Origin: an uncultured delta proteobacterium
GTDB lineage: Bacteria > Desulfobacterota > Binatia > Binatales > Binataceae
Direction: 5' to 3'
NCBI GenBank assembly: GCA_963744545.1
Contig: CAVUUH010000036.1
Coordinates: 141,880 to 205,879 of the forward strand
Length of the DNA: 64,000 bases
Below, one piece after another: positions 6,014 through 61,255 of the stretch; positions within the stretch are counted from its first letter, which is position 1; every line of letters begins with the position of its first letter. The notes under the pieces are model-generated. The model saw nothing but the letters and a program-made list of their open reading frames with translations. It made no database searches and was not told where the DNA came from. The position numbers and the translations under genes were made by a program.

Positions 6014-7265
6014 CCTCTCCTTGTCCGAGAGAGCTTTGCACAACCGGCGCGGGTGTTCGGCAGTAACAGGTGGTGCTTTGATTCAGTTCGAAGCGCTGAG
6101 GTGAGGGAGGTGGAGTCCCCTGCAGAGTTGTTGGCTTCTTGTTTTTCGGGTGGCGGATGCGGTTCGGCCTCAGCGCCGCGCTTAAGCGGAGCGCAAGACG
6201 AGCGCCCGGCGCAGATTGAGAGCGACGCACATCAGGTGAAGCTGCAGCGCATTGCGCGTCAGTCCGCGATAACGTACCCGCCGGTATCCGTACCAGCGCT
6301 TCATCCAGGCGAAGCTACGCTCGACCGCGAAGCGGGTGCGGGTCAGACTTCGATTGCGCGCGACCAGCTCCGGATCAGGATTGCGGGCAGTGCCCCACCA
6401 TGCACGCCGCATGATGCCGTCGGCGATGCCCAACCGCGCCAGCAGCTCGCGCCGCGCCACACTATCGTAAGCCTTGTCGCCGTATACACATTGCTCGTCG
6501 CCGCAGATCAGATCGTCGGCCACCACGGTTTCATTGGTTTTGGCCCCGGTCAGGATCGCTTTGCGCACCAGCCCCGAACCGGCGTCCACTGCCACGTGCG
6601 CTTTGTAGCCGAAGTGATAGTGGCGCACCTTGCCGTCCTTGCGCGTGCTCCATTCGGCATCGGGATCCTGCGGAGCCTTGGTCCCCGGCGCAACCGTGCC
6701 CTTGGGCCCGCTGGGCGGATTGACCGCCCCCTGAACTACGGTCGCATCGATGATGGTGCCGCGCTTGAGGATCAATCCTTGCGCTGAAAGCTGGCGGTTA
6801 ACTTCGGCCATCAGCCGCTCGCCGAGACCGCGCCGCGACAGCTGCGCGCGAAAGCGGCTTATCGTGCTGTGATCGGGCAACCGCTGCTTAAATCCCAAGC
6901 CGACAAAACTCCGGAAGCGTGAAACGGTCCAGCGGCGCGTCTTCAAAGCCGGATCAGAGAGCTGATACCATTGCTGCAACAGCAATGCTTTGAACATCAA
7001 CAAGGGCCGATACGCCGGCCGTCCCTCGCCAGCCGCGTACACTTCACCGAGCTGCCCCTCAATCGCGCCCCAGTCCAGCAACTTCGCGATCTCAAGTAGC
7101 CGACGGTTGCCGCCCCCGCTGCCGTATATCTCCTGCTCCGCGAAACTCCTCTGCCGCTCCTCTTCATGCCACATCCGCCCCGCGCCTCCCGCGCACCTAT
7201 CCTTTGATCATACCGCGCGAGGTTATGCAAAGATTTCTCGGACAAGGAGAGGTTAAGATCCTCCA
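6001..7265 (-). mobile_element. IS5-family insertion sequence (~1.26 kb) with ~36-bp imperfect terminal inverted repeats (TGGGGGATCCTAACCTCTCCTTGTCCGAGAGAGCTTTGCA / the reverse complement of the right end TGGAGGATCTTAACCTCTCCTTGTCCGAGAAATCTTTGCA)
   Basis: The inverted repeats were read directly from the sequence. They enclose a single DDE transposase ORF. Confidence 0.8.
6182..7174 (-). CDS. IS5-family DDE transposase
   Basis: A 330-aa ORF with an IS5/IS4-family transposase-like C-terminal region (…DKAYDS…RTRFAVERSFAWMKRWYGYRRVRYRGL…). Confidence 0.85.
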   Translation of the reverse strand: MWHEEERQRSFAEQEIYGSGGGNRRLLEIAKLLDWGAIEGQLGEVYAAGEGRPAYRPLLMFKALLLQQWYQLSDPALKTRRWTVSRFRSFVGLGFKQRLPDHSTISRFRAQLSRRGLGERLMAEVNRQLSAQGLILKRGTIIDATVVQGAVNPPSGPKGTVAPGTKAPQDPDAEWSTRKDGKVRHYHFGYKAHVAVDAGSGLVRKAILTGAKTNETVVADDLICGDEQCVYGDKAYDSVARRELLARLGIADGIMRRAWWGTARNPDPELVARNRSLTRTRFAVERSFAWMKRWYGYRRVRYRGLTRNALQLHLMCVALNLRRALVLRSA

Positions 7266-9370: not shown

Positions 9371-11023
9371 CTACAGCTGCAGGACGAAACGGATGTCGCC
9401 CAGGCGGACCTGGCTGCCTGAGCTCAGGAAGGCGGAGCCGCGGATTTGGCGGTCATCGACGTAGCTGCCGTTGGTCGAGTTCAGATCCATCAGCTCGAAG
9501 CCGCCGTCGCGGCGCATCAGGCGCGCGTGCTGTCGCGAGACGCTCGCGTGCGGAATGACGACGTCGTTGTCCTCGCCACGCCCGATCGAGATCTCGTCCT
9601 TCATCAACGAGTACTCGGCCGGTACCGGATCGATGCGATCGACGGCCACCAGCCGCGCGCCTTGGGTAATCCCGGCGCCACGCGGTGCCGTAATCGGTGA
9701 TTGCGACGGCGTTGGTCGCGCGGGTGCGCGCTGCGCCGTACGCGCCGCGGGCGGAGGTGCCGCCGACGGCATCCGAAGCGAGGGTGCGCCCTGCGCCTCG
9801 ACAATAGCCTTGAGTTCGTCGGCCGGCATCCCGAACCTCATTCGCGAGAGTCCGAACAGACCGAGAATCGCGATCAGCGGCACGGCGCCGTTCCACCAAT
9901 TGAATGAGAGTTGCTTCAGCCCGGTGCCGGTCGCGTTTCCGCCGGGCGTGCCTTCATCTTCGGGGACGTTAATCGCAGCGCCGCCAAGGCCGCGCACCTG
10001 GTACGCAGTGTCCGCTTCGCCATCGGAGCCGTTGTAGTCGATCTTCAGCTGGACGCTGCGATTGGTGCCGTCTTCGATTGGCCGCGGCGTTCGATAGGTC
10101 AGCGAATACTCAGTCGCGATCGAATGCCCAATCTCGCGCACCAGCGATGCGAACCGCCCTTCCTCCGTGATGATGTTGTACGAGCGGCCGTGGGTCGCGT
10201 CGACGATTTCCTGGTACTCGGGCGCGATGAATGGCGGCGGAACCACGCCATACAGAGTGAGTCCATTTTTCTTGAGCAGGTCGGCGACCTTAGTCCCCGT
10301 CAGATCCGTCACCTGCACGCCGCGAGTATGATGATCCCAGAACGCCTGATCGTGCGCCGAGTCGGCCGAGCCGTCGCCATCATGATGAGGCGGCGCGTCG
10401 GTGACGATAATGATGATGCCTTCGGCCTCGGGCCGGAACGGAAACTTCGCGGCATAGGCGAGAGCGTCGAGCTGATCCTCGGGGATGTCGCCGCCGCCGC
10501 CGGCATGCAGGGTGCCGACCCAGTCGCTGAACTGCTTGACGTCGGAGGTGAACGAGTTGCGATAGGCGCAATTGCAGTCGGGGTACGCCGAGACCACGTA
10601 GTCCTCGAACGTCACCAGCCCGAGGCGGTAGTCGCGGCTGTTGGATTGCAAATCCTGCGCAAAGGAGATCACGTTCTGCTTGACGGCGTCGATATAAGGC
10701 TGCATCGACTCCGTGACATCGAGCACGAAGACGATATCAACCGGACGGCCCTGGCCGACGCCGCGAAAATCAAGAATCTTGGCCTCTTTGCCATCCTCGA
10801 AAACTTTCACATTGTCGGGACGAAGGTTGCCGACCGGATTACCGTTCTGATCGGTCAGACCGAAGTCGAGCTGAACACCGCCGTCGGCATCGAAATGCTC
10901 GAGGCCCGGATTTCCGGTGGTGATTTTCAGGCTCGCATCGGCGGCTGTCACGCGAGCGCCGAAGCAGAACAGAAGAACTAATATGAACAGGCAGCGACAG
11001 GCGTTTCGATTGGACGATTTCAT
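9371..11023 (-). CDS. membrane protein with a periplasmic von Willebrand factor A domain, a single TM helix and a cytoplasmic C-terminal FHA domain
   Basis: Signal peptide; MIDAS region DIVFVLDVTESM; TM helix AVPLIAILGLFGL; Pro-rich linker; FHA (…ISIGRGEDNDVVIPHASVSRQHARLMRRDGGFELMDLNSTNGSYVDDRQI…). Confidence 0.7.
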   Translation of the reverse strand: MKSSNRNACRCLFILVLLFCFGARVTAADASLKITTGNPGLEHFDADGGVQLDFGLTDQNGNPVGNLRPDNVKVFEDGKEAKILDFRGVGQGRPVDIVFVLDVTESMQPYIDAVKQNVISFAQDLQSNSRDYRLGLVTFEDYVVSAYPDCNCAYRNSFTSDVKQFSDWVGTLHAGGGGDIPEDQLDALAYAAKFPFRPEAEGIIIIVTDAPPHHDGDGSADSAHDQAFWDHHTRGVQVTDLTGTKVADLLKKNGLTLYGVVPPPFIAPEYQEIVDATHGRSYNIITEEGRFASLVREIGHSIATEYSLTYRTPRPIEDGTNRSVQLKIDYNGSDGEADTAYQVRGLGGAAINVPEDEGTPGGNATGTGLKQLSFNWWNGAVPLIAILGLFGLSRMRFGMPADELKAIVEAQGAPSLRMPSAAPPPAARTAQRAPARPTPSQSPITAPRGAGITQGARLVAVDRIDPVPAEYSLMKDEISIGRGEDNDVVIPHASVSRQHARLMRRDGGFELMDLNSTNGSYVDDRQIRGSAFLSSGSQVRLGDIRFVLQL

Positions 11024-11230
11024 CGATGGCAGTAGTAATTCTCCGGATCGGGAAGGCGATCAGTCAAGACTCCGTAATCTATTTGACGCTCGCGCGCTTG
11101 AATGTATTCTTGCCTTCGCTCACTGGTTAGGTTATCCCAAACGCTGACCGAATTCTTCTGTGATGGATTCCGAGTGAAAGATTTTTTGGTGCATCGGACT
11201 GCCCTCCGCCCGACTCTGCCCTCAATTATC

Positions 11231-13423
11231 ATGGTTTGCCTGCTGCTGGTTTTAGCCGTGCCGGCCCGGGCCGCCAAGAACGCAAGGGTTCAGATAGGAT
11301 TTGTCGGCACGCAACCTGTGGCCGGAAATCCTCCAATGCCGCTGACGTTTCAAAACGTCCAGCTCAACGTGGTTGCGATCCGGCTCAATTCGCACGTGGG
11401 CGCGGCGCCGAACTCCAGCGGGTGGCAGAAAATTCCGGCGCCTCCCGGGATTGGCGGCAGTTCCTCGAACGGGGAATTGCAAATCGATCTCAACTCTTCG
11501 CAGAACATTCCGCAGCTCTTCAACACCGCGGCCGTGCGGGTCGACAACTACAAAATCGTCCAGCTCCAGCTCGATACATCCAACCCGGGCAGCTTGATTC
11601 CCACCTGCCCGGCTTCACCGCCAGCCGACGGATGTATCGTTTACCCCATCCAGATAAATAACCCCAACGGCATTACCTTCTCGAATCCCGACAAGAGCGT
11701 GGTCCTCTCCACGAAAACGAAAACGCTGGTATCGTTTGTCATGCAGGTGTCGATATCGATCACCAAGATACCGACGGCGCCAGGCGGCGCGTACACGGCA
11801 ACGATCTCGATCACGCCCATGACAAATCCTTCGACAGGTACGATCACCGGACAAGTGAATGTGGCGACGGGCACCGGCACGGGCACGTCGCCATCGGGAA
11901 AGGTCCGCAAATTGTCGGTGTCCGCCGAAACGATCGGAACCAACACGATTATCGCATCGGCGCCAATCACGCCCACTGCGAACACGGCGGGTGGTCAGAC
12001 TAACTGCCCACCTTCCCCAGGGGGATGCTTCACCCTTACACTTCCGGCGGCAGGGCCGCCGGCCTCAATGCCGTTTGGAACATTATATGACCTCGCAGTG
12101 TCAGGGGGCGCGGTTAATTACGCCGCCGCGCGGTTGCAGCCGCTGAACCCGGGCGAATTTATTTCCGTGCCCAGTTTCAAAGTCACCGGGAACCAGACAC
12201 TGGGGAATATCACCGGGTCGATCGGTGATGGTTGCGTTGCGAACAAACCTATTATCGGGGCCACGCTGCAGTTGTTGATTCCACCGAACGGCGGCACTGA
12301 CAACAGCGTGTGCTTGAGTCCGGCGACGGTAGGCCAATGCGTCACTGTTGCCAGCGCAAATACCGACAACGCCGGCAACTTCCCGCTGCCGGGTACGGTC
12401 TCGACCCCGGCGGCGTTCGCGAACGTTCCTACCCTGCCAAAAAAATCCGACAGCTACGCGATGGAGGTAACCGCGCCGGGCTACGACCCGTTATTCGTCC
12501 AGGTGACTCCGGGATCGGGCAGCAACAAGAAGGGCGGCGGCACCTGCAGCGTCAACGGCGGCGCGGCCGGAGCCTGTAATCTGCTGATGCAGACGGGATA
12601 CATCACAGGATCGATTCCGATAATACCGCCGAATCCCGGGGAAACCGCGTTAATCCAGGTGTTCGCCGAGGATCACAACACCAACAATATCGAAAGCGCG
12701 CTGCCGATGCCGAAGACGGTTGGCAGCAACCCGAATATCACTGACGTAACCTTCACCTTGAACGTTCCTCCCTCAATTCCGATTGGCTTTTTCGATTTGT
12801 TTGCTTCGACGATCGACTTTTATCAAGGCGTCGTCGATCCTTATCAGGGGCATAGTATTGTGGCGATAAGCCACGTCCCGGCTCCTGCGGCGTGCGCTAC
12901 AGTGACGGCTCCCACGCCCACTGACCCGACCCAGGTGATCTCATGCGTAGGTCACGGCAGTATTACCGGAACCGTCGCGAACCCCAATCTCGGTTCGTCG
13001 GTCGTCCTGGAAAAAATCGATCCGGATGCGCCGCCAATGGACGACACCGACGAAGTACAGTTAACGAATTCGCTCGTGCAGAATCAGCCGCCGAATCCAA
13101 CTGCGAGCAGTAACTACTCGTTCTGCGCCCCTGCAGATACTTACCAGGTCCAGGAGTTTCAACTTCCATCACCCACGCAGAGCGAGACGCCTATCGCCGC
13201 GGCTTCGCCCAGCCCGGTTCCGGACAGCTTTGCGACCGTCGTCATTCCGCCGCCGCCGACCGCGGGCGGACCCAGCCCGACTCCGACGCCGGCGATCAAA
13301 TGCCCGACCAACTGCTCGTTCCCCGGTGGCGGATGCCCCGGCATCTGTAACAACGCAGTCCAAGGTTTGCCACCAAGTCCAACAACATTAGTGAAAACGC
13401 CGATCGCGGCACCGACACCATGA
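11231..13423 (+). CDS. large secreted Thr/Pro/Gly/Asn-rich cell-surface protein with paired cysteines
   Basis: ATG at 11231 followed by signal MVCLLLVLAVPARA. The intact ~730-aa low-complexity ORF is divergent from the VWA-FHA gene. Confidence 0.5.
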   Translation: MVCLLLVLAVPARAAKNARVQIGFVGTQPVAGNPPMPLTFQNVQLNVVAIRLNSHVGAAPNSSGWQKIPAPPGIGGSSSNGELQIDLNSSQNIPQLFNTAAVRVDNYKIVQLQLDTSNPGSLIPTCPASPPADGCIVYPIQINNPNGITFSNPDKSVVLSTKTKTLVSFVMQVSISITKIPTAPGGAYTATISITPMTNPSTGTITGQVNVATGTGTGTSPSGKVRKLSVSAETIGTNTIIASAPITPTANTAGGQTNCPPSPGGCFTLTLPAAGPPASMPFGTLYDLAVSGGAVNYAAARLQPLNPGEFISVPSFKVTGNQTLGNITGSIGDGCVANKPIIGATLQLLIPPNGGTDNSVCLSPATVGQCVTVASANTDNAGNFPLPGTVSTPAAFANVPTLPKKSDSYAMEVTAPGYDPLFVQVTPGSGSNKKGGGTCSVNGGAAGACNLLMQTGYITGSIPIIPPNPGETALIQVFAEDHNTNNIESALPMPKTVGSNPNITDVTFTLNVPPSIPIGFFDLFASTIDFYQGVVDPYQGHSIVAISHVPAPAACATVTAPTPTDPTQVISCVGHGSITGTVANPNLGSSVVLEKIDPDAPPMDDTDEVQLTNSLVQNQPPNPTASSNYSFCAPADTYQVQEFQLPSPTQSETPIAAASPSPVPDSFATVVIPPPPTAGGPSPTPTPAIKCPTNCSFPGGGCPGICNNAVQGLPPSPTTLVKTPIAAPTP

Positions 13424-14115
13424 AAAACACGGCAAAGCTGGCGATGCGGAACTTCGCGCGAATGTTAGCGACAGGCGCGCTCGGCGCGATGCTCGCCGTT
13501 TCGATCGGAGCGTGCAACAACCAAACTGGATTTTCCGGCAGCGTCGGCAGTACCCCCAACGGTCCGAAGCTGCCTTCGTATCAAATCCTTGGCACGGTCG
13601 GGACGCCGTTCACTGCGACCATCTCGGACAATCGATCGTTTTGGACGCTGCAGGGAAACGTCCCGCTCAGCATCGCGATCTGCAACCCTCCTTCGGCGGA
13701 CGCGCAACTCGTCGTTACCAAGACGACTTCCGACGACAGCCTGTTGAGCGCCGAGATAATAACCGCCAATCACGTCAAGGATCTTCAATCGACGACGGCG
13801 CCCTTTGGTACCGTACAAGTGCAGATCGGTACGCAGACCTCGGCTCCAGGGGCTGCGGATCCTGATCTCCGAATATTCCTGAGCGGTCCGCTTAACGTGA
13901 AGTACCAGGCACTGGTCGAGGACATCGACACTGGATTCATAATCCAGGCGCGCGCGCCGACGCTGATAGTGTTCGACACCCCCAATGGCAAGGTGGACGC
14001 GACCTTCTTCGGACCCAACAACCACACCACCTTCACCGCCAACATGACGTTCAACGGAGAGGTGGTAGTCCCGACCTTCAGCCACGGTCCCAACCTGACG
14101 ATTCGCCAGCCATGA
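13420..14115 (+). CDS. lipoprotein of unknown function, translationally coupled to the upstream surface-protein gene
   Basis: An ATGA overlap with the upstream gene. Signal peptide plus lipobox (…LAVSIGAC). Confidence 0.55.
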   Translation: MKNTAKLAMRNFARMLATGALGAMLAVSIGACNNQTGFSGSVGSTPNGPKLPSYQILGTVGTPFTATISDNRSFWTLQGNVPLSIAICNPPSADAQLVVTKTTSDDSLLSAEIITANHVKDLQSTTAPFGTVQVQIGTQTSAPGAADPDLRIFLSGPLNVKYQALVEDIDTGFIIQARAPTLIVFDTPNGKVDATFFGPNNHTTFTANMTFNGEVVVPTFSHGPNLTIRQP

Positions 14116-14282
14116 CCGGCGCACAGAGTTGAGTCAGCGCTAGTAGTACCAATGAGTTTCGATTCGTTGAGCCGTTTCAGCCCGATACGTTTGACAGCCT
14201 CCCGCATTCGTCATACTTAGCCTCTGTAGCAGTGAGCGATTCGACAAACGCATCTGAGTCTCCCCGCCTCTGAAATCATTCT

Positions 14283-15400
14283 ATGAACTCGCAGCTCGTG
14301 CGCCGGGTAGTTTTAGTTGTCGTGATCATTGCAATCGCCGTCGCTGCGATTCCCGCTTATCGCTACTACCGCTTCCTCGAAAGTCACGTCAGCACTGACG
14401 ACGCCTATGTTGACGGTACCGTCGCGCTGGTGTCGTCGCGTGTCGCCGGCACCGTCACCAACGTTTACGTCGAGGACAACTGGGCGGTTAAGGAAGGGCA
14501 GTTGCTGCTGACGCTCGATCCGCGCGACTTCGAGGTCAAGGTCGAGCAGGCCGAGGCTCAGCTCGAGCGCGCAAAGCAATCGGTCGACGAGATGTACGCA
14601 GGAGTGCAGGCGGCCAGGTCGGGTGTGTCATTGGTACAGTCGCAGCTCAAGCAGGCGAAGATCGATTTCGATCGCGCCAAATCCTTGAAGGAACAAGGCG
14701 TCGTCTCGACCGAACAATACGATCAGGCCGACACCGGATTGCGCATCGCGCAGGCCGATGAAGCGTTGGCGGAGCATCAGTTGACCCAGGCACAAGCGGC
14801 CCTCGGAACTCAAACCGACGACCAGTCGCGCTACGAACGACCGATCGTCAAGCAGGCCGAGGCCGCTCTGGAAGCCGCCAAGCTCGATCTGAGCTATACC
14901 AAGATCACGGCGCCGTTCACCGGCGTCATCACTCACAAAACGGCGCACGTCGGCAATCGCGTGCAGGTCGGGGAGCCGCTGCTGGCGATCGTCCCGCTCG
15001 GCAAGCTCTACGTCACAGCGAATTTCAAGGAGACTCAGCTGACGGACGTGCGGGTTGGACAGAAAGCAGAGATCGTCGCCGACATCTATCCCGGCTTTAC
15101 CTATCAGGGACATGTCGATTCGATCAGCATGGGCACCGGCGCTGCCTTCTCGCTGCTGCCGCCCGAAAACGCCACCGGCAACTGGGTCAAAGTCGTGCAG
15201 CGGGTGCCGGTCAAGATTGTTATCGACGGACCGCGTCCCGAAGACAAGCCGCTCCGCCTTGGGCTGTCGGTTGAAGTGTCAATCGATCTGAGCGATCGCA
15301 GCGGACCGCTGCTGTCCTCGATGGTGCAGCAGCACTACCAGAAAGACGGCCAGACGCTGCCCAATGAGACCCTCGAGATGGCGCCCGAGTCTCAGCCGTC
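14283..15400 (+). CDS. HlyD/EmrA-family membrane-fusion (periplasmic adaptor) protein; the 3' end is uncertain because the ORF reads through into the next gene
   Basis: N-terminal TM segment, coiled-coil region and the typical β-barrel/MPD segment (…YTKITAPFTGVITHKTAHVGNRVQVGEPLLAIVPL…). No cognate transporter gene is adjacent. Confidence 0.7.
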
Positions 15401-15558
15401 GTCAGAGCCGCCGCCCGAACACCGGAACGCAGCAACATTTCATGAACCCCCTGCATTAGCCGTGCGCCACTCCACACCTGACACGCGTGTCAGGTCAATT
15501 GCGCCCGATTTCTGCGTGTACTACTCTGCGGTTCGCGTGGAATCTCCGCCCGCGTTTT

Positions 15559-16649
15559 GTCCAGATGCTCGACCCTCGCGACATTGCACAACGTCTATCC
15601 GCTTATCTCGGCGCGCCGGTTGCGCGCCTGAGCGTCCTCGCCAGCGGATGGGAAACCACGGTCTTCGAATTCACGCTGGAAGCGCGTCGCAGCGGTTTGC
15701 GTCAATCCCGGTCGGCGTACCGATGGTTTTGCGCTTCTATCAAGGCTCCGCCGCCGACGCCAAAGGCGCGCGCGAACACACCACCATCGATCGCCTATTC
15801 GGCGCGGGCTACCCAGTCCCGCGTCCGTACGCGTTCGAGGCCGACCATGGCGCGCTCGGCGCACCGTTCCTCATCATGCAGAAGCTGGCGGGCGGACAGC
15901 TGTTCGCGGTCCGCAGCTTTCCGAATGCCTTCAGGACCTTCTCGATGGCATTTTTTTCATTCGTCCGCACACAATCGAGACTCCACAAACTGGATCCGGT
16001 GAGCGCAGGCCTGCGCGAGATTCCCCGCGCGTATGCGGCCGTCGGTAACGCCCGCGATGACTCGCCGCTGCTCGATCGAGTGCTCGCGATCATCGCCAAT
16101 CGGGTCGAGAACGGTCCGCTCCCCGGCCTTCGCGAGGCGCTCAATCTCGTCACCGAGCGCGCGCCGAAATTCCGCCGCAGCCCGGATTCTCTCGTGCACA
16201 TGGACTACCACCCGCTCAACGTGATGGTGCAGGGAGTGCGCGTGACCGGCGTGATCGACTGGGTGAATACGGACGTCGGCGATCGCCATCTCGACGCCGC
16301 GATGACGGCGGTGATTTTGTCGTCGTCGGCGCTCGAGAACCCGCGATGGATGCGCGACAACCTGGTCGGCAACGGGCTTCGCGCGAGCTTCGCGGCGCTG
16401 TACATGCCGCTCTACCATGCGATGGCGCCGATGGACTTCGAGCGTTTCCGCTACTGCCAGGCGGTCGCGGCACTGCTGCGGCTCTCGATGATGGGGATGA
16501 TGCGCGCGCGCGGCCCGGAAATCGTGGGCTTCCGCCGCGAAGCGATCGACGAAGTCACGCCCGCCGTCGTACGACTGCTGAGCCGCTACGCAACCCGCAA
16601 GAGCGGCGCGTCGGTGCGCCTGGATGCGCCCGCGCCGCAACCGGCGTGA
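15559..16649 (+). pseudogene. aminoglycoside/choline-kinase-like phosphotransferase (APH family) with an apparent frameshift near 15715
   Basis: The N-terminus is in frame +1 (MLDPRDIAQRLSAYLGAPVARLSVLASGWETTVFEFTLE). The remainder is in frame 0 (…GYPVPRPYAFEAD…LIMQKLAGGQL…SLVHMDYHPLNVMV…GVIDWVNTDVGDRHLD…). Confidence 0.65.
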
Positions 16650-16697
16650 GTCGCGCTCGCGCGCCTATCGCATTCAGCTAAAAAAATCTGTAACTGA

Positions 16698-17012
16698 ATG
16701 GGCATGCGAAAGTGTTATGTGACCTCGCTGGTGTTGATCTCCTGGTTCCTGTTGATGCCGCCGCCGGTTTTTCCGCCGGTGAAGAGCGCGTCAGGTGATT
16801 ACAAGATGAATACCACGGCGCCGATTTCCCAATGGCTTAAATTTAAAACGCTCAAGTCCGAGCAGGCCTGCAAGGCGCAATTGAAAAAAGTGCAGCCCTA
16901 CTTCAAATGCGTTGCGAGCGACGACCCCGCGCTCGTGCAGCATGCCCCAGCCCCCGCCAGCGCCCCGAGTGTCTCGACAATCTCCGGCGCCGCCGGCGCT
17001 CACATGCAATAG
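16698..17012 (+). CDS. small secreted hypothetical protein
   Basis: A 104-aa ORF with an N-terminal hydrophobic segment. Confidence 0.3.
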   Translation: MGMRKCYVTSLVLISWFLLMPPPVFPPVKSASGDYKMNTTAPISQWLKFKTLKSEQACKAQLKKVQPYFKCVASDDPALVQHAPAPASAPSVSTISGAAGAHMQ

Positions 17013-17027
17013 GCGCGCTCTCTGTTT

Positions 17028-17052
17028 TTCCCCTCTCCCGCGGGGAGAGGGG
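17028..17052. terminator. bidirectional hairpin cccctctccc gcgg ggagagggg between convergent genes
   Basis: A perfect 10-bp inverted repeat between the stops at 17012 (+) and 17064 (-). Confidence 0.5.
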
Positions 17053-17063
17053 AAGAAGTCGCG

Positions 17064-17749
17064 TCAGATCGTTTTGCGGAGGGCGGCGCGCGTGAGAATG
17101 CGCGTCGAGTCGAGAACGGGCAACGGAGAATCGGCGGGACTTATCAGCAACGGAATCTCGGTGCAGGCCAACGCGACCGCGTCGCAGCCGTCAGTGGCGA
17201 GATTGCGGATTACATTTTGAAAGTATGCGCGGGACTCCGGAAGGATGCGCGCATTCACCAACTCTTCGTAAATGATCTGATTGATACGCTCGCGCTGTTC
17301 GAGGTTCGGAACGCGGTACTCGATACCTGCCGGCGCCAGCTTCGACGGATATACGGGTCCCTCCATCAGGTAGCGCGTTCCCAGAATTCCGAGCCGCTTG
17401 AAGCCATGCCGCCGAGCCTCGCCTGCAACTTCCTCGGCGATGTGGATCCACGGCGCGGGTGAACGCTCATGGACCAGATCGAGCCCCTGGTGAACAGTAT
17501 TGTCAGGACAAATCAGCAGTTGCGCGCCAGACTGGACGAGCTTCGCCGCCGACTCGAGCATCATCTCACCGACTGCGTCCCAACGGTCCTCCTCGATGGG
17601 CGCTGATAGCTGCCGAGCGAGAAACCGTGCAGCGTGATCTCCGGATGCTCATGCGGCCCCAGAAATTCCGCACCTTCGAGACAGATCGTGCGGTAACAGA
17701 GAGCGGCACCTTCGGAACTGACCGCGACGATGCCGATATGCTTCGTCAC
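17064..17749 (-). pseudogene. aspartate/glutamate racemase family protein with an apparent 1-nt frameshift in a CCC run near 17590
   Basis: N-terminus MTKHIGIVAVSSEGAALCYRTI…HPEITLHGFS, then +1 frame IEEDRWDAVGEMMLESAAKLVQSGAQLLICPDNTVH…. Confidence 0.7.
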
Positions 17750-20505
17750 GCAATCAATTCGCGCAGCACGAACGGCAGGATTCCGCCGTGCCGGACGTAC
17801 TCGACTTCCTCAGGCGTGTCCGCGCGCATCGTCACCTCGAACTCTGTCGTCTTGCCGCCGAATTCAGCACGCACCTTTAACGTCTGGCGCGGCTTGATCC
17901 CGGCTTTGAGTCCGGTGATCGAAAACAATTCCTTACCGATGAGCCCGAGTGTCTGCCGATTTTCGCCGGGCTTGAACTCGAGCGCGAGCACGCCCATCCC
18001 AATCAGATTGCTGCGATGGATTCGCTCGAAGTTTTCCGCGATCACGGCGCGCACGCCGAGCAGTTGCACACCCTTGGCGGCCCAATCGCGCGACGAGCCG
18101 GTGCCGTATTCCTTGCCCGCGATCACGATCAGCGGAACGCCCTCTTTGCGATAGCGCTCCGACGCGTCGAAAATCGTCATCTTCTCGCCGTCCGGCTGAT
18201 GCGCCGTGAACCCGCCCTCGACCCCCGGCACCATCAGGTTCTTGAGCCGGATATTCGCGAGCGTCCCGCGCATCATCACCTCATGATTCCCGCGCCGCGC
18301 GCCGTACGAGTTGAAATCCTTGGGCTGCACGCCGTGCTCGATCAGGTACTTGCCCGCGGGACTGTCGGGTGCGATCGAGCCCGCCGGCGAAATATGATCG
18401 GTCGTCACGCTGTCGCCGAGAACCGCGAGCGCCCTCGCGCCGTTGATGTCGGTGAACTCTCCAACTTTCGCGGTCACGCCCTCGAAGAACGGCGGCGCCT
18501 TCACATAGAGCGAATCTTCCGCCCATCGGAACAGGTTGCCCTCGGGAACTTTGAGACTCTTCCATCTTTCGTCGCCTTCAAACACCTGCCCGTACTCGCT
18601 CTTGAACATCTCGGCGTGAACCGAGCCGGTCACTGCAGCCGCGACTTCTTCCTGCGACGGCCAGATGTCGCGCAAAAACACCGGACGCCCGTCGGAACCG
18701 GTGCCGAGCGGCTGATGCTCGACGTCGATATCCATCGTGCCGGCAATCGCGTACGCGACCACCAGCGGCGGCGACGCGAGGTAGTTGAATCGCACGACGG
18801 GATTGATGCGCCCCTCGAAATTGCGATTGCCGCTCAGGATCGCGCACGCCACCAGGTTGCCATTCTTGATCGCGCCGGCGATCGCCTCGTCAACCGGCCC
18901 GCTGTTGCCGATACAAGTCGTGCATCCGTAACCAACCAGGTTGAAGCGTAGTTTTTCCAGTGACTCGATCAGTCCCGCGCGCTTGAGGTACTGCGTGACG
19001 ACCTTCGATCCTGGCGCCAGGCTGGTCTTCACGAATGGCTTGACGGTCAGCCCGCGTGCGACCGCTTTCTTCGCGAGAATCCCCGCCGCCAGCATCACCG
19101 ACGGATTCGAGGTGTTGGTGCAGCTCGTGATAGCGGCGATCACGATCGAGCCATGCGTCAGCCGAAACTTCCCAGCCTCGGAATGCACCTCGACCTTATG
19201 CGCGATATGCCCGAGCTTCGTTTCGAGGATGGTTCCCTCGCCGGCAACCGCGCCGTTGCCGCCTTCGGCGACCCACTTCGCCAGCTCGTCGCGATCGACG
19301 CTCGGATGCTCCTCGAACTCCTTGCCGAGCTCGCGACGAAAATCGCTCTTGGCCTGCGTCAGCGCGACTCGATCCTGCGGACGTCGCGGACCCGCCATGC
19401 TCGGCACGACGCTGCCGAGATCGAGTTCGAGCGTGTCGGAAAATTTCGGCTCGGGCGCGTCGGGCGAATTGAAAAGTCCTTGCGCCTTGCAGTACGCCTC
19501 GATCAATTTGATCTGGCTGTCGCTGCGGCCAGTCAGCCGCAGATACGTGAGCGTCTGTTCGTCGACCGGAAAATATCCCATCGTTGCGCCGTACTCGGGC
19601 GACATGTTGCCGAGCGTCGCGCGATCCGCGACCGGCAGCGATGCGAGCCCCGGCCCGAAGTACTCGACGAACTTGCCGACCACGCCTTTCTTGCGCAGCA
19701 TCTGGGTGACAGTCAGCACCAGGTCGGTCGCCGTCGCGCCGGGACGCAGACTGCCCGAGAGGCGAAAGCCGATCACTTCGGGAATCAGCATCGGCATCGA
19801 GCGCCCGAGCATCGCGGCTTCGGCCTCGATTCCGCCGACGCCCCATCCCACGACGCCGAGCCCGTTGATCATCGTGGTGTGCGAGTCGGTGCCGATGACA
19901 GTGTCGGGATACGCCTCGCCCTTCTCCGACGCGAAAACCACCGGCGCGAGATATTCGAGATTGACCTGGTGAACGATTCCGGTGTCAGGCGGCACGACGC
20001 GAAAATTGTCGAACGCGCCCTGGCCCCATCGCAGGAAAAGATAGCGTTCCTGGTTGCGCTCGAACTCGAGTTGCGCGTTGGCGGCGAAGGCGTTGGCGGT
20101 TCCGAACGAATCGACCTGCACAGAATGATCGATCACCAAATCGACCGGCTGCAGGGGACTTATCTTGTCGGGATTGCCGCCGAGCTTCTTGATGGCGTCG
20201 CGCATCACCGCCAAATCCGCGACCACCGGCACGCCGGTAAAGTCCTGCAAGAGCACGCGCGCCGGCATGAACGAGACTTCGCGCTCGCCGCCCTTGCCGT
20301 TCCATCGGGCCAGCGCTTCTATCTGACCCTTCGTCACGATCACTCCGTCCTCGCGCCGCAACACGTTCTCGATCATCACCTTGATCGAATACGGCATTCG
20401 CGCGAGCGAGAACCCCCGCTTCTCGAGCGCATCGAGTTTGTAAATCGTGTAGCTCTTGCCATCAACCGTGAGGGTTGAACGAGCACCAAAACTGTTTGTC
20501 GTCAT
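17746..20505 (-). CDS. acnA: aconitate hydratase AcnA
   Basis: Full-length match to aconitase A (MTTNSFGARSTL…SIKVMIENVLRREDG…). The likely start is the ATG at 20505. Confidence 0.9.
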   Translation of the reverse strand: MTTNSFGARSTLTVDGKSYTIYKLDALEKRGFSLARMPYSIKVMIENVLRREDGVIVTKGQIEALARWNGKGGEREVSFMPARVLLQDFTGVPVVADLAVMRDAIKKLGGNPDKISPLQPVDLVIDHSVQVDSFGTANAFAANAQLEFERNQERYLFLRWGQGAFDNFRVVPPDTGIVHQVNLEYLAPVVFASEKGEAYPDTVIGTDSHTTMINGLGVVGWGVGGIEAEAAMLGRSMPMLIPEVIGFRLSGSLRPGATATDLVLTVTQMLRKKGVVGKFVEYFGPGLASLPVADRATLGNMSPEYGATMGYFPVDEQTLTYLRLTGRSDSQIKLIEAYCKAQGLFNSPDAPEPKFSDTLELDLGSVVPSMAGPRRPQDRVALTQAKSDFRRELGKEFEEHPSVDRDELAKWVAEGGNGAVAGEGTILETKLGHIAHKVEVHSEAGKFRLTHGSIVIAAITSCTNTSNPSVMLAAGILAKKAVARGLTVKPFVKTSLAPGSKVVTQYLKRAGLIESLEKLRFNLVGYGCTTCIGNSGPVDEAIAGAIKNGNLVACAILSGNRNFEGRINPVVRFNYLASPPLVVAYAIAGTMDIDVEHQPLGTGSDGRPVFLRDIWPSQEEVAAAVTGSVHAEMFKSEYGQVFEGDERWKSLKVPEGNLFRWAEDSLYVKAPPFFEGVTAKVGEFTDINGARALAVLGDSVTTDHISPAGSIAPDSPAGKYLIEHGVQPKDFNSYGARRGNHEVMMRGTLANIRLKNLMVPGVEGGFTAHQPDGEKMTIFDASERYRKEGVPLIVIAGKEYGTGSSRDWAAKGVQLLGVRAVIAENFERIHRSNLIGMGVLALEFKPGENRQTLGLIGKELFSITGLKAGIKPRQTLKVRAEFGGKTTEFEVTMRADTPEEVEYVRHGGILPFVLRELIA

Positions 20506-20573
20506 GCGTTCAGAATAGCGCGCGAGCGCGGCCAATCAACCAGTGATAAAGTGAAAAATGAAAAATGAAAAAA

Positions 20574-23500
20574 CTAATTTGAAGATCTGCGGCGCGAGGC
20601 ACGCGCGGGCGCCGGCCCATGCAAGCCGTCGAAGACCAGCGAGCGGCCGTCGGAATGGAAACGCATCGCGGCGAGGATTCCGACTCGCGGGGACTCGAGC
20701 GCGGGGACGCCGTCGATTGAATCGATCGTGATCCGCGGCTTCAACGTCATGAGAGCCGCGACGGCTGCGCTGAAACTCTCGTCGTCCACTTCGCCCTCAC
20801 CAGTGATCATCGCGCGTCCTTGCAGTCCGGCAATCACGCGTCCGGCGCGTACAACGATGACGTTGCCAGCCTCGCGCGCGATACCGCATCCGGGAATCAC
20901 GGCGCCGTAAGGATTGGCCGGATCGATCGCGCTGAGAGCGATCGGCTTCTCGCGCGCCGCGATGAGATTGCGGGCGGCATGCAGCATCTCGACCGCTTCG
21001 GGCAGCGCGTACTGCTCGCCGGAAAGCGAGCGCACGAACCATCCGCGGCGAATCGCGCCACCATATTCGAGCCGGCGAAGCGCGAAGGAGATTTCGTTCC
21101 ATGAGATATGCGTCGATTCGATTCCGAGCATCTCGCGCGCGAGGATTCCGTGGCGTTCGAGCAACTTGAGCGCGAGGTCGCGCGTTTCATCGGCGCCAAC
21201 CACGGGAGTTTCGGCCGCGCGAATCAATGACCATCGTCCTGCCAGGCTCGACTTCAGTCGCGCGCGAACCGCGGCGTCGTGACGAGTCGTCGGACGACGT
21301 GCGACCGACTCAAGCGCACGCTCGGCGGCGCGATCGTCGGAAAACATCCGCAGTGGCGCGAAGTTGTCGTTGCTGACGCGTCCCGCCGCCGCCATCCTCC
21401 ACAGGGCCGACAACGCGTCGCGCTCGGAGATGTTCGCGCGCTCAGCTACCTCGTCGAGATACTGAGCGCCGGCGGCTCCCAGAGCCGTCAGCACCGCTTG
21501 CTCCTTCGCGTCTTCGGTTGCGGAGGCGTCGCCTTGAGCAAAGAGACTCGCTTTGCGCGCGACGAACGTGACTCGCGACGGTGTGTTCGCGGGACGCGCA
21601 CCTTCGACGGCTTCTCCGGGTTCGGCAAGCCACTTCATCTGACCGCTCATGCAAACCAGGTCGAGCATCTCGGGGCGATAGCCTTCGATGCGCGCCGGCA
21701 GGATCGCATGCTCCCAATTTTCGGGCGTCGCCGCGATTCCTGAAAGCTGATCGAGCACCGCGGCGACTCCGGTCTGGTCCGCGGGAAGCTCGGTGCTGCC
21801 GACGTGCATCCACTTCAGCCGGAAAGCTGCGTACTCATGATCGGCGCACGGCTCGATTTCGGCGCGCACACGCGCCAGCGTCATCCGATGGATCCGTTCG
21901 AGGTTGTAGCGATCGCACCATTGAATCGTGTCGGAGCGGGTGAAGTGTCCGCGGAAAATCGCGCCCTGCCCTTCCAGCGCCGCGAGATTCTGATCGATGT
22001 CCGATTGTATGAGATGCAGTCGCGCGGCGATCTCGGCGGCTGTCGTCGGTCCGCAAGTTTTTAATGCTCGCCGCACAAGTTCGACGCGAGCCGCGTCGCC
22101 ATCTGATGAACCGCCGGCGTACGCTGCATCGAACAGCGGCTTGTCCTCGCTGGCAATCATTCTTTCGGGTGATTCGCCGTTCAAGCTGACGCGTGCGATT
22201 CGGCCTTCCGCGTCCAGCTCCGAGATCATTGCGCGGGCACCCTCGCCTAGTCGTTCTTCGACTTCGGCCAGCGTCAGCGAGCCGTGCGCGCGAATCAGTT
22301 CGAAGAGTTCGTCGCGCGAGCGCGGCTTGCGCCCTGCGGCGCGGCCCGTCACTTCGGCAACGACGCTTTCGACCGCATCGGCGGAGAGCAGATCGGATAG
22401 ATCCTCTTTGCGGAACACGTCCTCGGCCATGCCGCGATTCATCGTGACAGTCCGCGAACGGCGGTTGGCCCGCTCGCCATCGTCGAGGAACGAATAATCC
22501 CACGCGAGTAACAGGCGATGCGCGAACACCGACGGCGCGATTGCGTCGACGGTGACGGTGCGAATCGCGCCGCTCTCGATTCCTTCGAGCAATTGGACGA
22601 TGCGCGGCAGGTCGGTGGATTCCTCGAGACATTCGCGAATCGTTTCTTCGATCACGAAATGGTCCGGCAGTTCGATCGCGCCCGGCCGGTTCTCGAAGCA
22701 TGCTTGCTGGCCTGGAAAAATCGACGACAGCAATTCCTGCGAGCGCAGGCGCTGGATCCAGGCGGGAACTTTTTTGCCGCGCGACGATCGCATGATCGCA
22801 AGCGCGCGGGTCGCGACATGACGGAAGCGCACTTCGAACATCGGGGCGGCGAGCAATGCCTGCACCAGCACGTCGCGGGCGTTGCGCGCCTTCAACATGC
22901 TGAAGAGAGTGTCGAGCGGAAAGCTGTGGCGCGAATTCAGCGCGAGCAGCACGCCGTCGTCGATAGCAGACGCCTGGATTTCGAAATCGAACGACTGGCA
23001 CAGGCGCTTTCGAATCGCGAGGCCGAGTCCGCGATTGAGACGGATACCGAACGGAGTGTGGATGACGAGTTGGGTACCGCCGAGGCCGTCGAAGAAGCGC
23101 TCGATGACGACGGTCTTCTCGTCGGGAATCGCGCCGAGCGCCTCGACGCCTCGACGTACATAGTCGGCGGCTTGGGTCGCGGCGCGCTCCGACATCGCGC
23201 ATTCGCTCATCAGCCACTCTTCGGGCGATTGTTTGCGCTCGATGCGATCCCAAATTTCGTGGCGCAGGTCGCTGATCTCCGCCGACATCGCAGGCGAGCG
23301 GCCGCCCGCCTCGGTCAACCAGAATGGGAGCGTCGGCGCCATCCCGGGAGCAGCCTCGACCATCAGGCGTCCGCGCGAGCTGCGCTGGATCTGCCAGGGC
23401 ATCGAGCCCAGTGAAAAAACGTCGCCGCGCGAGGATTCCTGCGCGAAGTCTTCTTCGACGTCACCGATTTTGCGGCCTTCGGATTCGATCACGACGTCGT

Positions 23501-31928: not shown

Positions 31929-33431
31929 CTAGCCGGGGGCGACCTGCTTGCCGGCGCTGGTGCCGGCGATCTTGCCGAACACCGAGCCCGACACCAGGCC
32001 CGGTGCCGCCCGGGTAGTTGTGATAGAACAGCCCGCCGACCAGCTCGCCGGCCGCATAGAGCCCGGCGATCGGCTTCTGCGCGGTGTCGAGCACGCGGCC
32101 GTCGGTGTCGATCCGCACCCCGCCAAAGGTGAAGGTGACGCCGCAGGTCGTGCAGATACGCCTCGTAGGGCGGCTTTTCGAGCGGCATCGCCCAGTTGGT
32201 CTTGTCGATCGCGAGGCCCTTGGTGGTGCGCCCGTCCTTGACCGTCGGGTTGTAGGGGATGTCGCGTTGGACCGCCGCGTTGTAGTCGGCGATCGTCTTG
32301 AGGAACGCCGCTTTGTCGACCGGCGCGTACTCGGCCATCTTGTCGGCCAGCTCCTCGATCGTGTCGGCGGTCACCTTGGTCACCTGGCGGATGCGGTATT
32401 CGTCGCGCTGCAGATGCACGACCTGCTGGTCGAAGATCTGCCAGGCGAACTGGTGCGGCTGGTTCAGGATCTCGCGGCCGTATTTGGCGTAGGTGTAGTT
32501 GCGGAAATCGGCGCCCTCGTCGCAGAACCGCTCGCCGTCGGCGTTGACCATGATGGCGAACGGGTAGGAGTGCTTCTGGAAATTGTCGCCGACCGCGAGG
32601 TCGCCGAATTCCGGCGCGTTGTAGTCCCAGCCGACCGCATGGCAGCCCGACCAGTTGCCGTACGGCATCGCGCCGATCTCCAGCGCCATCTTGATGCCGT
32701 CGCCGGTGTTGAAGCGGGTGCCGCGCACCTTGGCGAGGTCCCAGCCGGGGCCGAGATAGCGGGTGCGCATCTCGGCATTGGCCTCGAACCCGCCGCAGGC
32801 CAGCACCACCGCCTTGGCCGCGGATCTCGGTGGTCTTGCCCTCGACATTGGCGACGACGCCGTGGACGCCGTCATCGTCGGCGATCAGCTTCTCGCCGCG
32901 CGCCTCATAGGCGACCTCGATGCCGCGGTCCTCGGCCGATTTGAACAGGCCCTCGACCAGCCCCGGCCCGCCGCCCCAGGCTTCCAGCGCGAGCCCGCCC
33001 CAGAACACGAACTTGCCGTCGTGCTTGAAGGCCTGGCGCGAATACATCGGCGCGAAGCGGATGCCCTTGCCGCGCATCCACAGCAGCGTCTCCTGGCTCT
33101 AGGTGATCAGCAGCTCGGCCATGTCGGGGTTCGACTGCGGTAGTCGGTCAGCCGGCCGAGATCGTCGTAATACTTGTCCTGCGTGTAGGTGCCGAAATCG
33201 CTGGTCGCCATCTCGGTCTCGGTGAGGTCGCAGAGCTTCAGCAGATCGTCGACGCCGTTATAGACAAAGCGCAGCGCGCCCGGCGGTGTAGCGGCTGTTG
33301 CCGCCGCGCTCGTCGAACGGCGCCGCTTCCAGCACCAGCACCCGCGCGCCCTTCTCCTGCGCCGCCAGCGCCGCGCACATGCCGGCATTCCCCGCGCCGA
33401 CCACGACGACATCGTATTCGCCCGAAATCAT
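31929..33431 (-). pseudogene. tcuA: tricarballylate dehydrogenase TcuA-like FAD flavoprotein with at least 5 frameshifts
   Basis: The N-terminus is MISGEYDVVVVGAGNAGMCAALAAQEKG. Successive segments fall in different frames (…GALRFVYNGVDDLL…; …RGIRFAPMYSRQAFKHDGKFVFWGG…; …VVLACGGFEANAEMRTRYLGPGWDLAKVRGTRFNTGDGIKMALE…; …IDTDGRVLDTAQKPIAGLYAAGELVGGLFYHNYPGGTG…; …GLVSGSVFGKIAGTSAGKQVAPG*). Confidence 0.75.
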
Positions 33432-33811
33432 CCCGCTTCCTCCGCTTTGGCTCTCGCCGCGAACGAGTAGCGCGGCGAGCGCGGCCGAGGCAAGCCCCGC
33501 CCCGGCTACGGCGCGATCCGCACCAGCACTCGCGAGTTTTCGCAGATGCGCGGGTTGACGGTGCCGTCCGAGAACGTGACGGTCTCGACATCCGGCTCGG
33601 TGGTGGCGAGAACCAATGTTCGGTTGTCCGCGGACAGGGTGCCCGCCAGACGCACCAGGTCGATCGTGAAGGTCTGGCCGGTCCGAGGCCCGGTCAGCAC
33701 CGTCCCGGCGACATTGGCCGCCCTGGTTTTTACCTGGTTGTTGGGGCCGACCGAACCGGCGCGGCCCGGGCACGGGCTTGCGCGAGCCCGGGGCGGTGCA
33801 CAGCTTAGCGG

Positions 33812-34598: not shown

Positions 34599-34778
34599 AG
34601 ACACACGTCACCGCAGAGGGCGCGGCGGATGCGCAGAGGGCGCCGATGCCTCCGCGTCCTCTGCGAAGCCTGGCGGCGCGTGCGGTAAGGCGTTATCTTT
34701 GCTCGCGATGACGACCACCGCCTTCTTCGGAGCAGAGCACCGGACCGTCGCGATGATCGCGGCAGCGCATCTGCGCCG

Positions 34779-36885: not shown

Positions 36886-36921
36886 AGTAAAGGATTCGGG
36901 GTAGCTTCCAATTAACGGGGA

Positions 36922-38168: not shown

Positions 38169-38282
38169 GCGAACTCTCCCTATGCGGTCATCGCGAGCGC
38201 AGCGAAGCAATCCCGAAGATCAGAGTACCGCCTGATCGAGATTGCTTCGCCGCTGCGCGCCTCGCAATGGCACGGTGTGCCC

Positions 38283-41445: not shown

Positions 41446-41746
41446 GGATCACTCACAGAGCCCCCTCCCCGGCCTTCTCCCCGCGTGCGGGAAGAGGGAG
41501 GTCAGTGCTATCATCATCCGGTCAGGGAGAGCGCACGATGCAGCAGGGCCGCGGAGGGTTGGGGAGCCGCAAGCACGGGGTCTCCGGGCATGCCTCGCAG
41601 AGCCCGCGCCTGCGGCTGGCGAAGAAGCTGGCCGCCGAGCGCGGCGAGTATGACAGCGGCAAGCCGCGCCGCCCGCGGCGGCTCGCCTTCGCGACCGTGC
41701 GCGAGGCCTTGCGCGGCGAGGCAAAACCCCGAGGAGGAGGATTTCG

Positions 41747-60162: not shown

Positions 60163-60232
60163 GGCGCCGAACCGTCCGATTTACAATTTCGGGCGCGGTC
60201 GCCAGGACCGCCATGTCAGGAAAGGCGCTCCC

Positions 60233-61236: not shown

Positions 61237-61255
61237 CGTCTCCCTCCTTCTGTTC

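Follow-up and report, generated by a model that had tools for sequence, protein, structure and literature searches.

A Candidatus Binatus membrane protein predicted to join an extracytoplasmic integrin-β-type VWA domain to a cytoplasmic FHA domain

Architecture of the VWA-FHA protein

In this work we analysed a gene on the minus strand (9371..11023) of a 64-kb stretch of DNA from an uncultured member of the Binataceae (contig CAVUUH010000036.1), the whole of which is referred to here as the window. The open reading frame (ORF) is intact, starts with ATG and encodes a protein of 550 amino acids (aa), which is a conserved membrane protein of the uncultured soil bacterium Candidatus Binatus. The identical protein (100% identity) is present in public metagenome-assembled genome (MAG) assemblies on a 225-kb contig, and named relatives are annotated as 'FHA domain-containing protein [Candidatus Binatus sp.]'. 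When a single genome was scanned for each species, 240 relatives were identified, the best 80 of which were all from Binataceae (65-96% identity), so that at least 80 genomes of the family have the gene, while proteins of a sister clade within the Binatia were 42-46% identical to the window protein. The AlphaFold2 (AF2) model, which was built on a 57-sequence family alignment and has a mean predicted local distance difference test (pLDDT) score of 74.8, lays the chain out as a helix (4-22), strands (33-87), an α/β domain (95-303), further strands (305-342), two helices (375-394 and 401-411) and the FHA domain (456-549). Pfam, hydropathy and this model agree on the order of parts proposed by the initial annotation, i.e., a signal-type N terminus, a vWA domain, one transmembrane (TM) helix, a Pro/Ala linker and a C-terminal FHA domain. 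The features of the gene, all on the minus strand, are the following:

10943..11023, minus strand: predicted Sec-type signal peptide, residues 1-27 (hydropathy, charge, AF2 helix 4-22)
10742..10942, minus strand: N-terminal β-strand segment, residues 28-94 (AF2 strands 33-36, 49-57, 72-76 and 79-87)
10115..10741, minus strand: VWA domain, integrin-β I-like, residues 95-303 (D102xT104xS106, D179xP181E182, T208D209)
9989..10114, minus strand: C-terminal β-strand segment, residues 304-345, YSLTYRTPRPIEDGT... (AF2 strands 305-311, 321-330 and 333-342)
9905..9988, minus strand: Gly/Thr-rich stalk from the ectodomain to the membrane, residues 346-373 (pLDDT <50 over 355-374)
9836..9904, minus strand: single TM helix, residues 374-396, FNWWNGAVPLIAILGLFGLSRMR (hydropathy, AF2 helix 375-394)
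9659..9835, minus strand: juxtamembrane helix 401-411 and disordered Pro/Ala/Arg-rich cytoplasmic linker, residues 397-455 (composition, AF2)
9374..9658, minus strand: FHA domain, residues 456-550 (G481-R482, S496-R497, H499, T517-N518-G519)

Over residues 92-222 three VWA-type Pfam profiles lie above their cutoffs, namely VWA_4 (PF25106; 49.4 bits, cutoff 27), Integrin_beta (PF00362; 41.4 bits, cutoff 24.8) and VWA (PF00092; 34.3 bits, cutoff 23.8), with VWA_2 falling slightly under its own (26.6 bits, cutoff 27). Together with D102-V-T104-E-S106, E182 and D209, these matches uphold the earlier proposal of a vWA domain with a MIDAS (metal ion-dependent adhesion site). The motif itself is DxTxS, a variant of the canonical DxSxS with Thr in place of the first Ser. 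The residues D102/T104/S106, D179/P181/E182 and T208/D209 are invariant in the 57-sequence alignment, in both clades, and are found in 78-80 of 80 Binataceae orthologs. Profile and model comparisons place this putative metal-binding domain specifically in the integrin-β (βI) type of VWA. An ectodomain profile retrieved 59 integrin β chains (E 1e-13 to 4.5e-7) ahead of any other PDB protein, and all of the 50 best Foldseek matches to the model were integrin β headpieces. When aligned to integrin β8, PVDIVFVLDVTESM pairs with PVDLYYLVDVSASM, GGGDIPEDQLDAL with GNIDTPEGGFDAM, and IIIVTDAPPH with LLVMTDQTSH, the target MIDAS falling on the DVSAS, DTPE and TD motifs of β8. We take the DxPE loop to be the counterpart of the integrin loop shared by the synergistic metal-binding site (SyMBS) and the MIDAS, and the position of the adjacent site (ADMIDAS) is presumably held by Q108-P109. 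Profile alignments to integrin β7 and β2 begin ~30 residues upstream of βI; according to the model, residues 28-94 probably form half of a β-sandwich which hosts the inserted VWA, and an equivalence of the VWA-flanking strands to the integrin hybrid domain is only partly supported. The motif of the C-terminal strand segment is kept in all relatives with this extracytoplasmic VWA, including variants with zinc-ribbon tails. A match to TIGR03436 (acidobact_VWFA) reached 56.8 bits against a cutoff of 81.25 and was partial, pairing residues 50-169 with model positions 10-130 of 324.

Two inserts in the VWA domain are specific to Binataceae and absent from the sister clade. The first is His/Asp-rich (HHDGDGSADSAHDQAFWDHHTRG, residues 213-235; 10319-10387, minus strand), with H213 and H231 in 80/80 orthologs and H232 in 79/80. 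The second is a CxC insert (C150-N-C152; 10568-10576, minus strand), both cysteines of which occur in 79/80; it aligns to the Cys-rich loop of integrin β8 and presumably sits roughly at the integrin specificity loop. Together they may form an additional metal site. The conservation of the MIDAS/SyMBS-like residues and of the His and Cys positions just named would suit a periplasmic metal-ion sensor, in which occupancy of the MIDAS and the two inserts by Mg, Mn, Ca, Zn or Cu, and not a protein ligand, is the signal. However, since the inserts are missing from a sister clade of the same architecture they are not part of the core mechanism, no metal-homeostasis genes are adjacent, and where VWA domains have been characterised, the ion in the MIDAS serves as cofactor when an acidic residue of the ligand is bound (PMC6509490). 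We consider a metal sensor quite improbable.

At the other end of the protein, the FHA domain expected from the initial annotation is matched well over the cutoff by Pfam FHA (PF00498; residues 478-542, E=2.4e-19, 70 bits against 20.7, profile positions 1-67 of 67 covered), and the AF2 model has the 11-stranded β-sandwich of an FHA fold, with pLDDT >90 over 456-549. The canonical residues for binding phosphothreonine (pThr), G481-R482, S496-R497-x-H499 and N518-G519, do not vary among 57 family members, and 79-80 of the 80 Binataceae orthologs have them. With its full set of pThr-binding residues, the domain is predicted to be pThr-competent. A match to NF049868 (FhaB/FipA) covers linker and FHA (residues 430-543) at 61.9 bits, against an equivalog cutoff of 125. 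We also looked for an autoinhibitory pThr site of the GarA/OdhI kind in the linker, and rejected this candidate as no Thr is conserved there across both clades.

Two further FHA-type matches bear on the idea that the domain is a phospho-independent scaffold of a secretion machine, in the manner of YscD/PrgH of type III (T3SS), TagH/Fha of type VI (T6SS) or EssC of type VII (T7SS) secretion systems. Yop-YscD_cpl (PF16697) scores 50.4 bits with a cutoff of 33.2 and TIGR03354 (VI_FHA) scores 42.7 bits, but both coincide with the stronger generic FHA match and the second is far under its cutoff of 120. FHA folds of the YscD type typically lack the pThr-binding residues, which are intact here, and no T3SS, T6SS or T7SS genes were found among 48 scanned ORFs of the window or in two of the orthologous loci (L001 and L002). 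A secretion scaffold is thus very improbable. As a separate observation, one distant protein with an extracytoplasmic VWA and a TM helix (P0150, 551 aa) ends in two FHA-like domains without the arginine of the GR pair and without the serine of the SxxH motif. These are probably phospho-independent folds, which means that pThr competence of the cytoplasmic reader is not universal in the superfamily.

Hydropathy identified just two hydrophobic segments in the 550 aa, at residues ~11-27 and ~374-394. The first is preceded by K2/R6/R10 and followed by VTA/AD, which fits the -3/-1 rule and a Sec signal peptide. The second (FNWWNGAVPLIAILGLFGL) is followed by RMR and then by a linker in which 15 Ala, 12 Pro and 7 Arg make up much of the 65 residues 406-470, with pLDDT <50 across 412-453. 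That the VWA lies outside and the FHA inside, as the initial annotation had it, is backed by homologues of 775-903 aa (P0127, P0152 and the one in locus L085), which run from an N-terminal multi-TM region through an FHA domain, one helix, the VWA module and one more helix to a second FHA domain. Exactly two hydrophobic helices separate the FHA domains and flank the VWA, so that the two FHA domains would share one face of the membrane, with the VWA on the opposite face; since FHA domains read ATP-dependent Thr phosphorylation, the FHA side would be the cytoplasm. The positive-inside statistics weakly support the same topology: across 46 family members there are on average 1.48 Lys and Arg after the TM helix and 0.63 before it, with more after the helix in 27 sequences, equal numbers in 16 and fewer in 3.

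Conservation and gene context of the relatives

Among 79 Binataceae orthologs identity is 87% for the ectodomain (also for its N-terminal strand segment, residues 28-94), 87% for the TM helix, 79% for the FHA domain, 72% for the stalk, 48% for the linker and 32% for the signal peptide. The alignments thus point to clear purifying selection on the ectodomain, the TM helix and the FHA domain. The fast evolution of residues 1-27 next to the conservation of the internal helix fits a cleaved signal peptide in the one case and a functional TM helix in the other. It should be noted that conservation of the TM helix equals that of the VWA; this is out of the ordinary for a helix that only anchors a protein, and is a hint of specific contacts between helices.

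In a library of representatives at 50% identity the full architecture occurs in few clusters (P0121, P0126, P0127, P0150, P0152 and some fragments), and relatives of the ectodomain alone are many. A recurring cassette is composed of signal peptide, β-strands, VWA (DxTxS...GGGDxPE...TDAPxH), the strands YxLxYxSPRPxxDGT and the TM helix. The commonest alternative tail on the cassette is a pair of zinc ribbons (P0148, P0149, P0159-P0161, P0168, P0169), and multi-pass regions also occur (P0153, P0166). This recurrence with other cytoplasmic tails marks the extracytoplasmic VWA and TM helix as a modular unit with swappable small adaptor domains. Searches of the literature found no account of a cytoplasmic FHA and an extracytoplasmic VWA of the integrin-β type on one polypeptide, and no report placing such a protein in vWA/FHA/PP2C/kinase operons; with only a handful of clusters carrying the full architecture, the earlier description of this topology as uncommon and poorly characterised appears fair.

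The gene context of homologues was analysed in five loci, three from the sister Binatia clade (L084, L085, L086) and two from other, unrelated lineages (L087, L088). The sister clade has a run of genes on the same strand which encode, in order, a 429-aa cytoplasmic VWA protein, a 217-aa zinc-ribbon and FHA protein with the architecture of ArnA, a 568-aa fusion of zinc-ribbon, kinase-like and PP2C domains, a 791-aa receptor-type Hanks kinase with one TM helix and a 285-aa multi-TM FHA protein, with the homologue of the window protein last. In L085 the last two are fused, a Rosetta-stone link. The order in L087 is Pkinase, VWA, DZR-FHA, PP2C, Pkinase-DZR-FHA and homologue, while L088 has a variant with a zinc-ribbon tail, on the flanks of which lie six kinase genes, one VWA and one FHA gene and no match to PP2C. 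The homologue therefore shares a same-strand run with Pkinase, FHA and cytoplasmic VWA genes in all five loci, and with PP2C in four. Many relatives of the kinase-PP2C fusion lie on contigs equal in length to those bearing the sister-clade homologues, which is consistent with an operon conserved across that clade. The operon and the fusions in relatives support the topology predicted here, and also the connection with Ser/Thr-kinase signalling that had been put forward from the window sequence. Downstream of the VWA-TM-FHA gene the sister-clade loci are variable: L084 carries (11850-21554) a 1665-aa surface protein with Calx-β-like and leucine-rich repeat (LRR)-like repeats and an 1801-aa LRR/Calx-β protein, neither with Pfam matches, and L086 carries on the opposite strand (11594-14917) coiled-coil/TPR-like proteins of 687 aa and 418 aa.

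Combinations of vWA, FHA and kinases also occur in conflict systems (PMC7159879), and the kinases of the sister-clade operon match PADLOC kinase models, which would agree with an anti-phage or conflict role of the vWA-associated type. Those matches, however, reflect generic Pkinase similarity; PADLOC has no match for the window protein, for the ArnA-like and ArnB-like proteins or for the two surface proteins described below, there is no MoxR ATPase or effector domain, and the gene is core and syntenic across the whole family where a conflict gene would be patchy. We hold such a role to be extremely improbable, and membership of a kinase/phosphatase signalling module remains the reading we prefer.

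Neighbouring genes in the window and in other Binataceae

In the window itself the gene is monocistronic, convergent with a DUF1329 gene and divergent from a gene which we call big773. The features on this side are the following:

11024..11173, no strand: divergent intergenic region with σ70-like promoter matches in both directions
11174..13423, plus strand: big773, a Pro/Thr-rich secreted or lipoprotein surface protein of ~750 aa with many paired Cys, the divergent neighbour
13420..14115, plus strand: sec231, a 231-aa lipoprotein with lipobox ...SIGA-C32, its start overlapping the big773 stop (ATGA)

The promoter-like sites (11067-11038, minus strand; 11083-11110, plus strand) are matches to consensus only, and 3 were found where 0.6 would be expected by chance. 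Called mechanically, the big773 ORF starts at ATG 11102; the orthologous locus L005 has an in-frame stop within that leader (11102-11173, plus strand) and the orthologs share a conserved GTG start (VK[DQK]...), the window counterpart of which is 11174. GTG 11174 is therefore probably the true start, and with it the divergent intergenic region is ~150 bp. Across 83 Binataceae loci, big773 is adjacent and divergent in 82, with 29-86% identity and thus fast evolution, and sec231 keeps its position in 78. An EmrA-like adaptor is present in 74, an APH-fold gene (PF01636) in 68 and, on the other flank at varying distance, the DUF1329 gene in 52. Among 17 orthologs of big773, 9 match DUF4382 and 3 CarboxypepD_reg; the window copy has no Pfam match, and no relative by sequence was found in the PDB. 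Cys32 of sec231 is invariant in 19 orthologs; the protein has no Pfam match, and its PDB matches are at chance level. Their conserved adjacency makes big773 and sec231 the best candidates for extracytoplasmic partners or ligands of the VWA. None of the proteins named above downstream of the sister-clade homologues in L084 and L086 resembles big773. The Binataceae gene has left the kinase operon and is now fixed beside these two fast-evolving surface proteins.

This setting is also where a structural role has to be weighed, i.e., an integrin-like adhesion or anchoring protein whose VWA holds an envelope assembly (big773, sec231 and perhaps the EmrA-like adaptor) and whose FHA tethers or positions it on a phosphorylated partner in the cytoplasm or cytoskeleton, for localisation or control from the inside outwards, with no relay of signals inward. 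The integrin-β type of the VWA, the constant adjacency to two surface proteins combined with detachment from the kinase operon, and a conserved TM helix suggestive of helix-helix packing within a complex would all agree with it, and there is a precedent in the focal adhesions of Myxococcus, which use the VWA adhesin CglD and the FHA-TM protein GltG (PMC11761067; bioRxiv 10.1101/2023.10.19.562135). Matches of CglD and GltG nevertheless score 22 and 17 bits against cutoffs of 400 and 650, no motility, pilus or secretion genes were found in the window, and the gene of the relatives lies among kinases and phosphatases and not among genes for envelope structures. A purely structural role is unlikely, in our estimate; it overlaps with the signalling role that we prefer, and what sets the two apart is chiefly which way the coupling runs and what it is for.

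The 48 window ORFs scanned with Pfam are housekeeping and metabolic genes only, with no Hanks kinase, PP2C, T3SS, T6SS, T7SS, motility, pilus or secretion gene among them. The initial annotation had found no kinase, phosphatase or T6SS component nearby, and this holds in the window for Hanks kinases, PP2C and T6SS; it has to be qualified by an ORF 3.3 kb away with an APH-fold phosphotransferase. That protein was considered as a cognate kinase and set aside as an unlikely partner: its matches are weak and to models of small-molecule phosphotransferases only, the Hanks probe is marginal (E=0.031) and the gene is frameshifted here. The EmrA/HlyD-like adaptor was likewise rejected as a part of the system; it belongs to the generic EmrA family (310 bits), is missing from some loci that retain big773 and sec231, and is probably merely syntenic. 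In the window these two genes appear as a single 788-aa ORF (14283-16649, plus strand), which is an artefactual fusion: in orthologous loci the adaptor (388-391 aa) and the APH protein (361 aa) are separate genes, whereas here 1-nt indels with respect to L005, L004 and L006, two of them in short base runs, put the adaptor stop out of frame and frameshift the APH gene. The indels represent either sequencing or assembly error or pseudogenisation.

Proposed role, known systems and remaining features

We favour, with moderate confidence, a role of the 550-aa protein as a receptor or adaptor, bitopic in the inner membrane, which belongs to a phospho-signalling module of the Hanks-kinase/PP2C kind, i.e., as a co-receptor with no kinase of its own. 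The exported integrin-β-type VWA with its flanking β-strands would sit in the periplasm or on the cell surface, joined by one TM helix and a flexible Pro/Ala linker to the cytoplasmic FHA, and the type of module (cytoplasmic VWA, zinc-ribbon-FHA, PP2C and receptor kinase) is suggested by the gene context of the relatives. The FHA would dock on pThr made by a kinase, most plausibly on the autophosphorylated receptor kinase itself or on a membrane substrate of the kinase, and the MIDAS would bind an extracytoplasmic protein through an acidic residue of this ligand; in this way, its binding or clustering on the outside would be coupled to assembly of a phospho-dependent complex inside. The analogy would be to a PpkA whose kinase domain has been swapped for a pThr reader. 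In Binataceae the kinase feeding the FHA would be encoded elsewhere in the genome, and big773 and sec231 are the candidate extracytoplasmic partners. The vWA-FHA-PP2C-Hanks kinase operon adjoins the homologues in L084-L087 and neither the window gene nor its counterparts in the 83 Binataceae loci, so that the protein has descended from, and probably still works with, such a module rather than being located in one. A phospho-dependent function has probably been retained in Binataceae because the ectodomain, TM helix, FHA and key residues are still constrained even though no kinase is linked.

Several points weigh against this role. A six-frame scan of the 64-kb window found neither a Hanks kinase nor a PP2C, and no further FHA or VWA; none of these was found within ±10 kb in the 83 Binataceae loci either. 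Membership of a kinase module is proposed through guilt by association, and the best 120 relatives listed for the kinase-PP2C fusion all belong to the sister clade, which makes them uninformative for Binataceae. The link to big773 and sec231 is drawn from synteny within one bacterial family, in which synteny is generally high (aconitase, Lhr and ALS, too, are frequent neighbours), and this is weak functional evidence. As to the protein itself, cleavage of the signal peptide is predicted from rules and the membrane orientation from homologues, the pTM of 0.50 makes the inter-domain geometry of the AF2 model unreliable, and D102 of the MIDAS is replaced by N in 2/80 orthologs.

The closest parallel in overall design is PpkA of the threonine phosphorylation pathway of the Pseudomonas aeruginosa H1-T6SS, a transmembrane protein with an extracellular VWA sensor domain which phosphorylates the FHA protein Fha1 and is opposed by PppA (PMC3224232; PMC1262709). 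Both would be bitopic in the inner membrane, with an extracytoplasmic VWA, one TM helix and, in the cytoplasm, Ser/Thr phospho-signalling in which an FHA reader and a PP2C take part. PpkA, however, carries its own kinase domain N-terminal to the TM helix and has its FHA on a separate protein, while the order here is VWA-TM-FHA with no Pkinase match and the VWA is of the integrin-β type; furthermore, the PpkA pathway shares a T6SS gene cluster with PppA, Fha and TagR, and no T6SS, PP2C or kinase genes are found in the window or in the orthologous loci. The second parallel is the phosphorylation-dependent complex of ArnA (FHA) and ArnB (vWA) in Sulfolobus (PMC6509490), together with the vWA-STPK-FHA-PP2C operon of Deinococcus, DRA0331-0334 (bioRxiv 10.64898/2026.01.23.701218). 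The module of ArnA, which has a zinc finger and FHA, and ArnB is accompanied by the kinases ArnC/D and a phosphatase, and T7SSc TscD/E/F are likewise known. In all of these the VWA and FHA are separate soluble cytoplasmic proteins, whereas here both would be on one membrane-spanning chain with the VWA outside, and no other gene of the module is linked in the window. FhaB/FipA (Rv0019c) and FhaA of Mycobacterium tuberculosis are similar as membrane-associated FHA adaptors that dock on kinase-phosphorylated partners. Unlike FipA, the window protein has an ectodomain and is not set in a division/cell-wall cluster, and it is not an ortholog by the NF049868 score given above (61.9 against 125).

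The remaining comparison is with integrin β itself, related sequences of which were reported earlier in bacteria, including cyanobacteria (PMC3192720, PMC2651865). The residues equivalent to MIDAS and SyMBS align, as does the TDxxxH strand; the domain has β-strands on either side, and a single TM helix is followed by a cytoplasmic tail, which in integrins engages adaptors. Identity is 13-21%, though, the acidic pair of the ADMIDAS is not conserved, the PSI, EGF and β-tail domains and the NPxY tail are absent, and the cytoplasmic part is a linker with FHA; Pfam found no α subunit, FG-GAP/β-propeller partner or other domain of integrin type among the 48 window ORFs scanned. One may tentatively propose that the family is a prokaryotic counterpart of the integrin β headpiece, with a βI MIDAS in a hybrid-like sandwich, a TM helix and an FHA or zinc-ribbon tail acting bidirectionally with receptor Hanks kinases, and that its Binataceae version is a receptor for a rapidly evolving pair of surface proteins. 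We find this broader proposal doubtful as it stands; if true, it would offer a bacterial model of transmembrane coupling in the manner of integrins and be relevant to a prokaryotic origin of their β subunit.

The component domains, vWA-STPK-FHA-PP2C operons, the periplasmic VWA of PpkA and integrin-β-like sequences of bacteria were already known. The extracellular inputs of the abundant Hanks-type kinase systems of bacteria are mostly unknown, and this family would provide a defined input device, with an integrin-β-type MIDAS domain outside joined to a pThr reader inside, which recurs in a kinase/PP2C/FHA/VWA operon and in natural fusions in some genomes. It would extend the PpkA paradigm to a kinase-less co-receptor and add a membrane-spanning member to modules of the ArnA/ArnB type. 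The Binataceae version points to candidate pairs of ligand and receptor in an uncultured phylum of soils worldwide, and the likeness to integrin β, not to a generic VWA, bears on the origin of integrin-type adhesion receptors.

Elsewhere in the window, GC content rises from ~0.60 to 0.68-0.72 at 32000-44000 and 58000-64000, and past ~26 kb the Pfam matches of many ORFs are partial: Linocin_M18 (78-253/253) behind a partial FAD_binding_2, Molybdopterin (180-352/353), Aminotran_3 (177-282/403) and Asp_Glu_race (56-211/211). Such a pattern points to frameshifts or gene fragments, or else to a region that is mosaic or mis-assembled. Because of the several indels of frameshift type and the truncated matches, ORF boundaries outside the VWA-FHA gene are unreliable in the window. 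On the other side of that gene, ~2 kb downstream of the DUF1329 gene, lies an IS5-like DDE transposase (DDE_Tnp_1 and DUF772; 6182-7174, minus strand), which is a recent insertion in this genome, as none of the 83 orthologous Binataceae loci has it.

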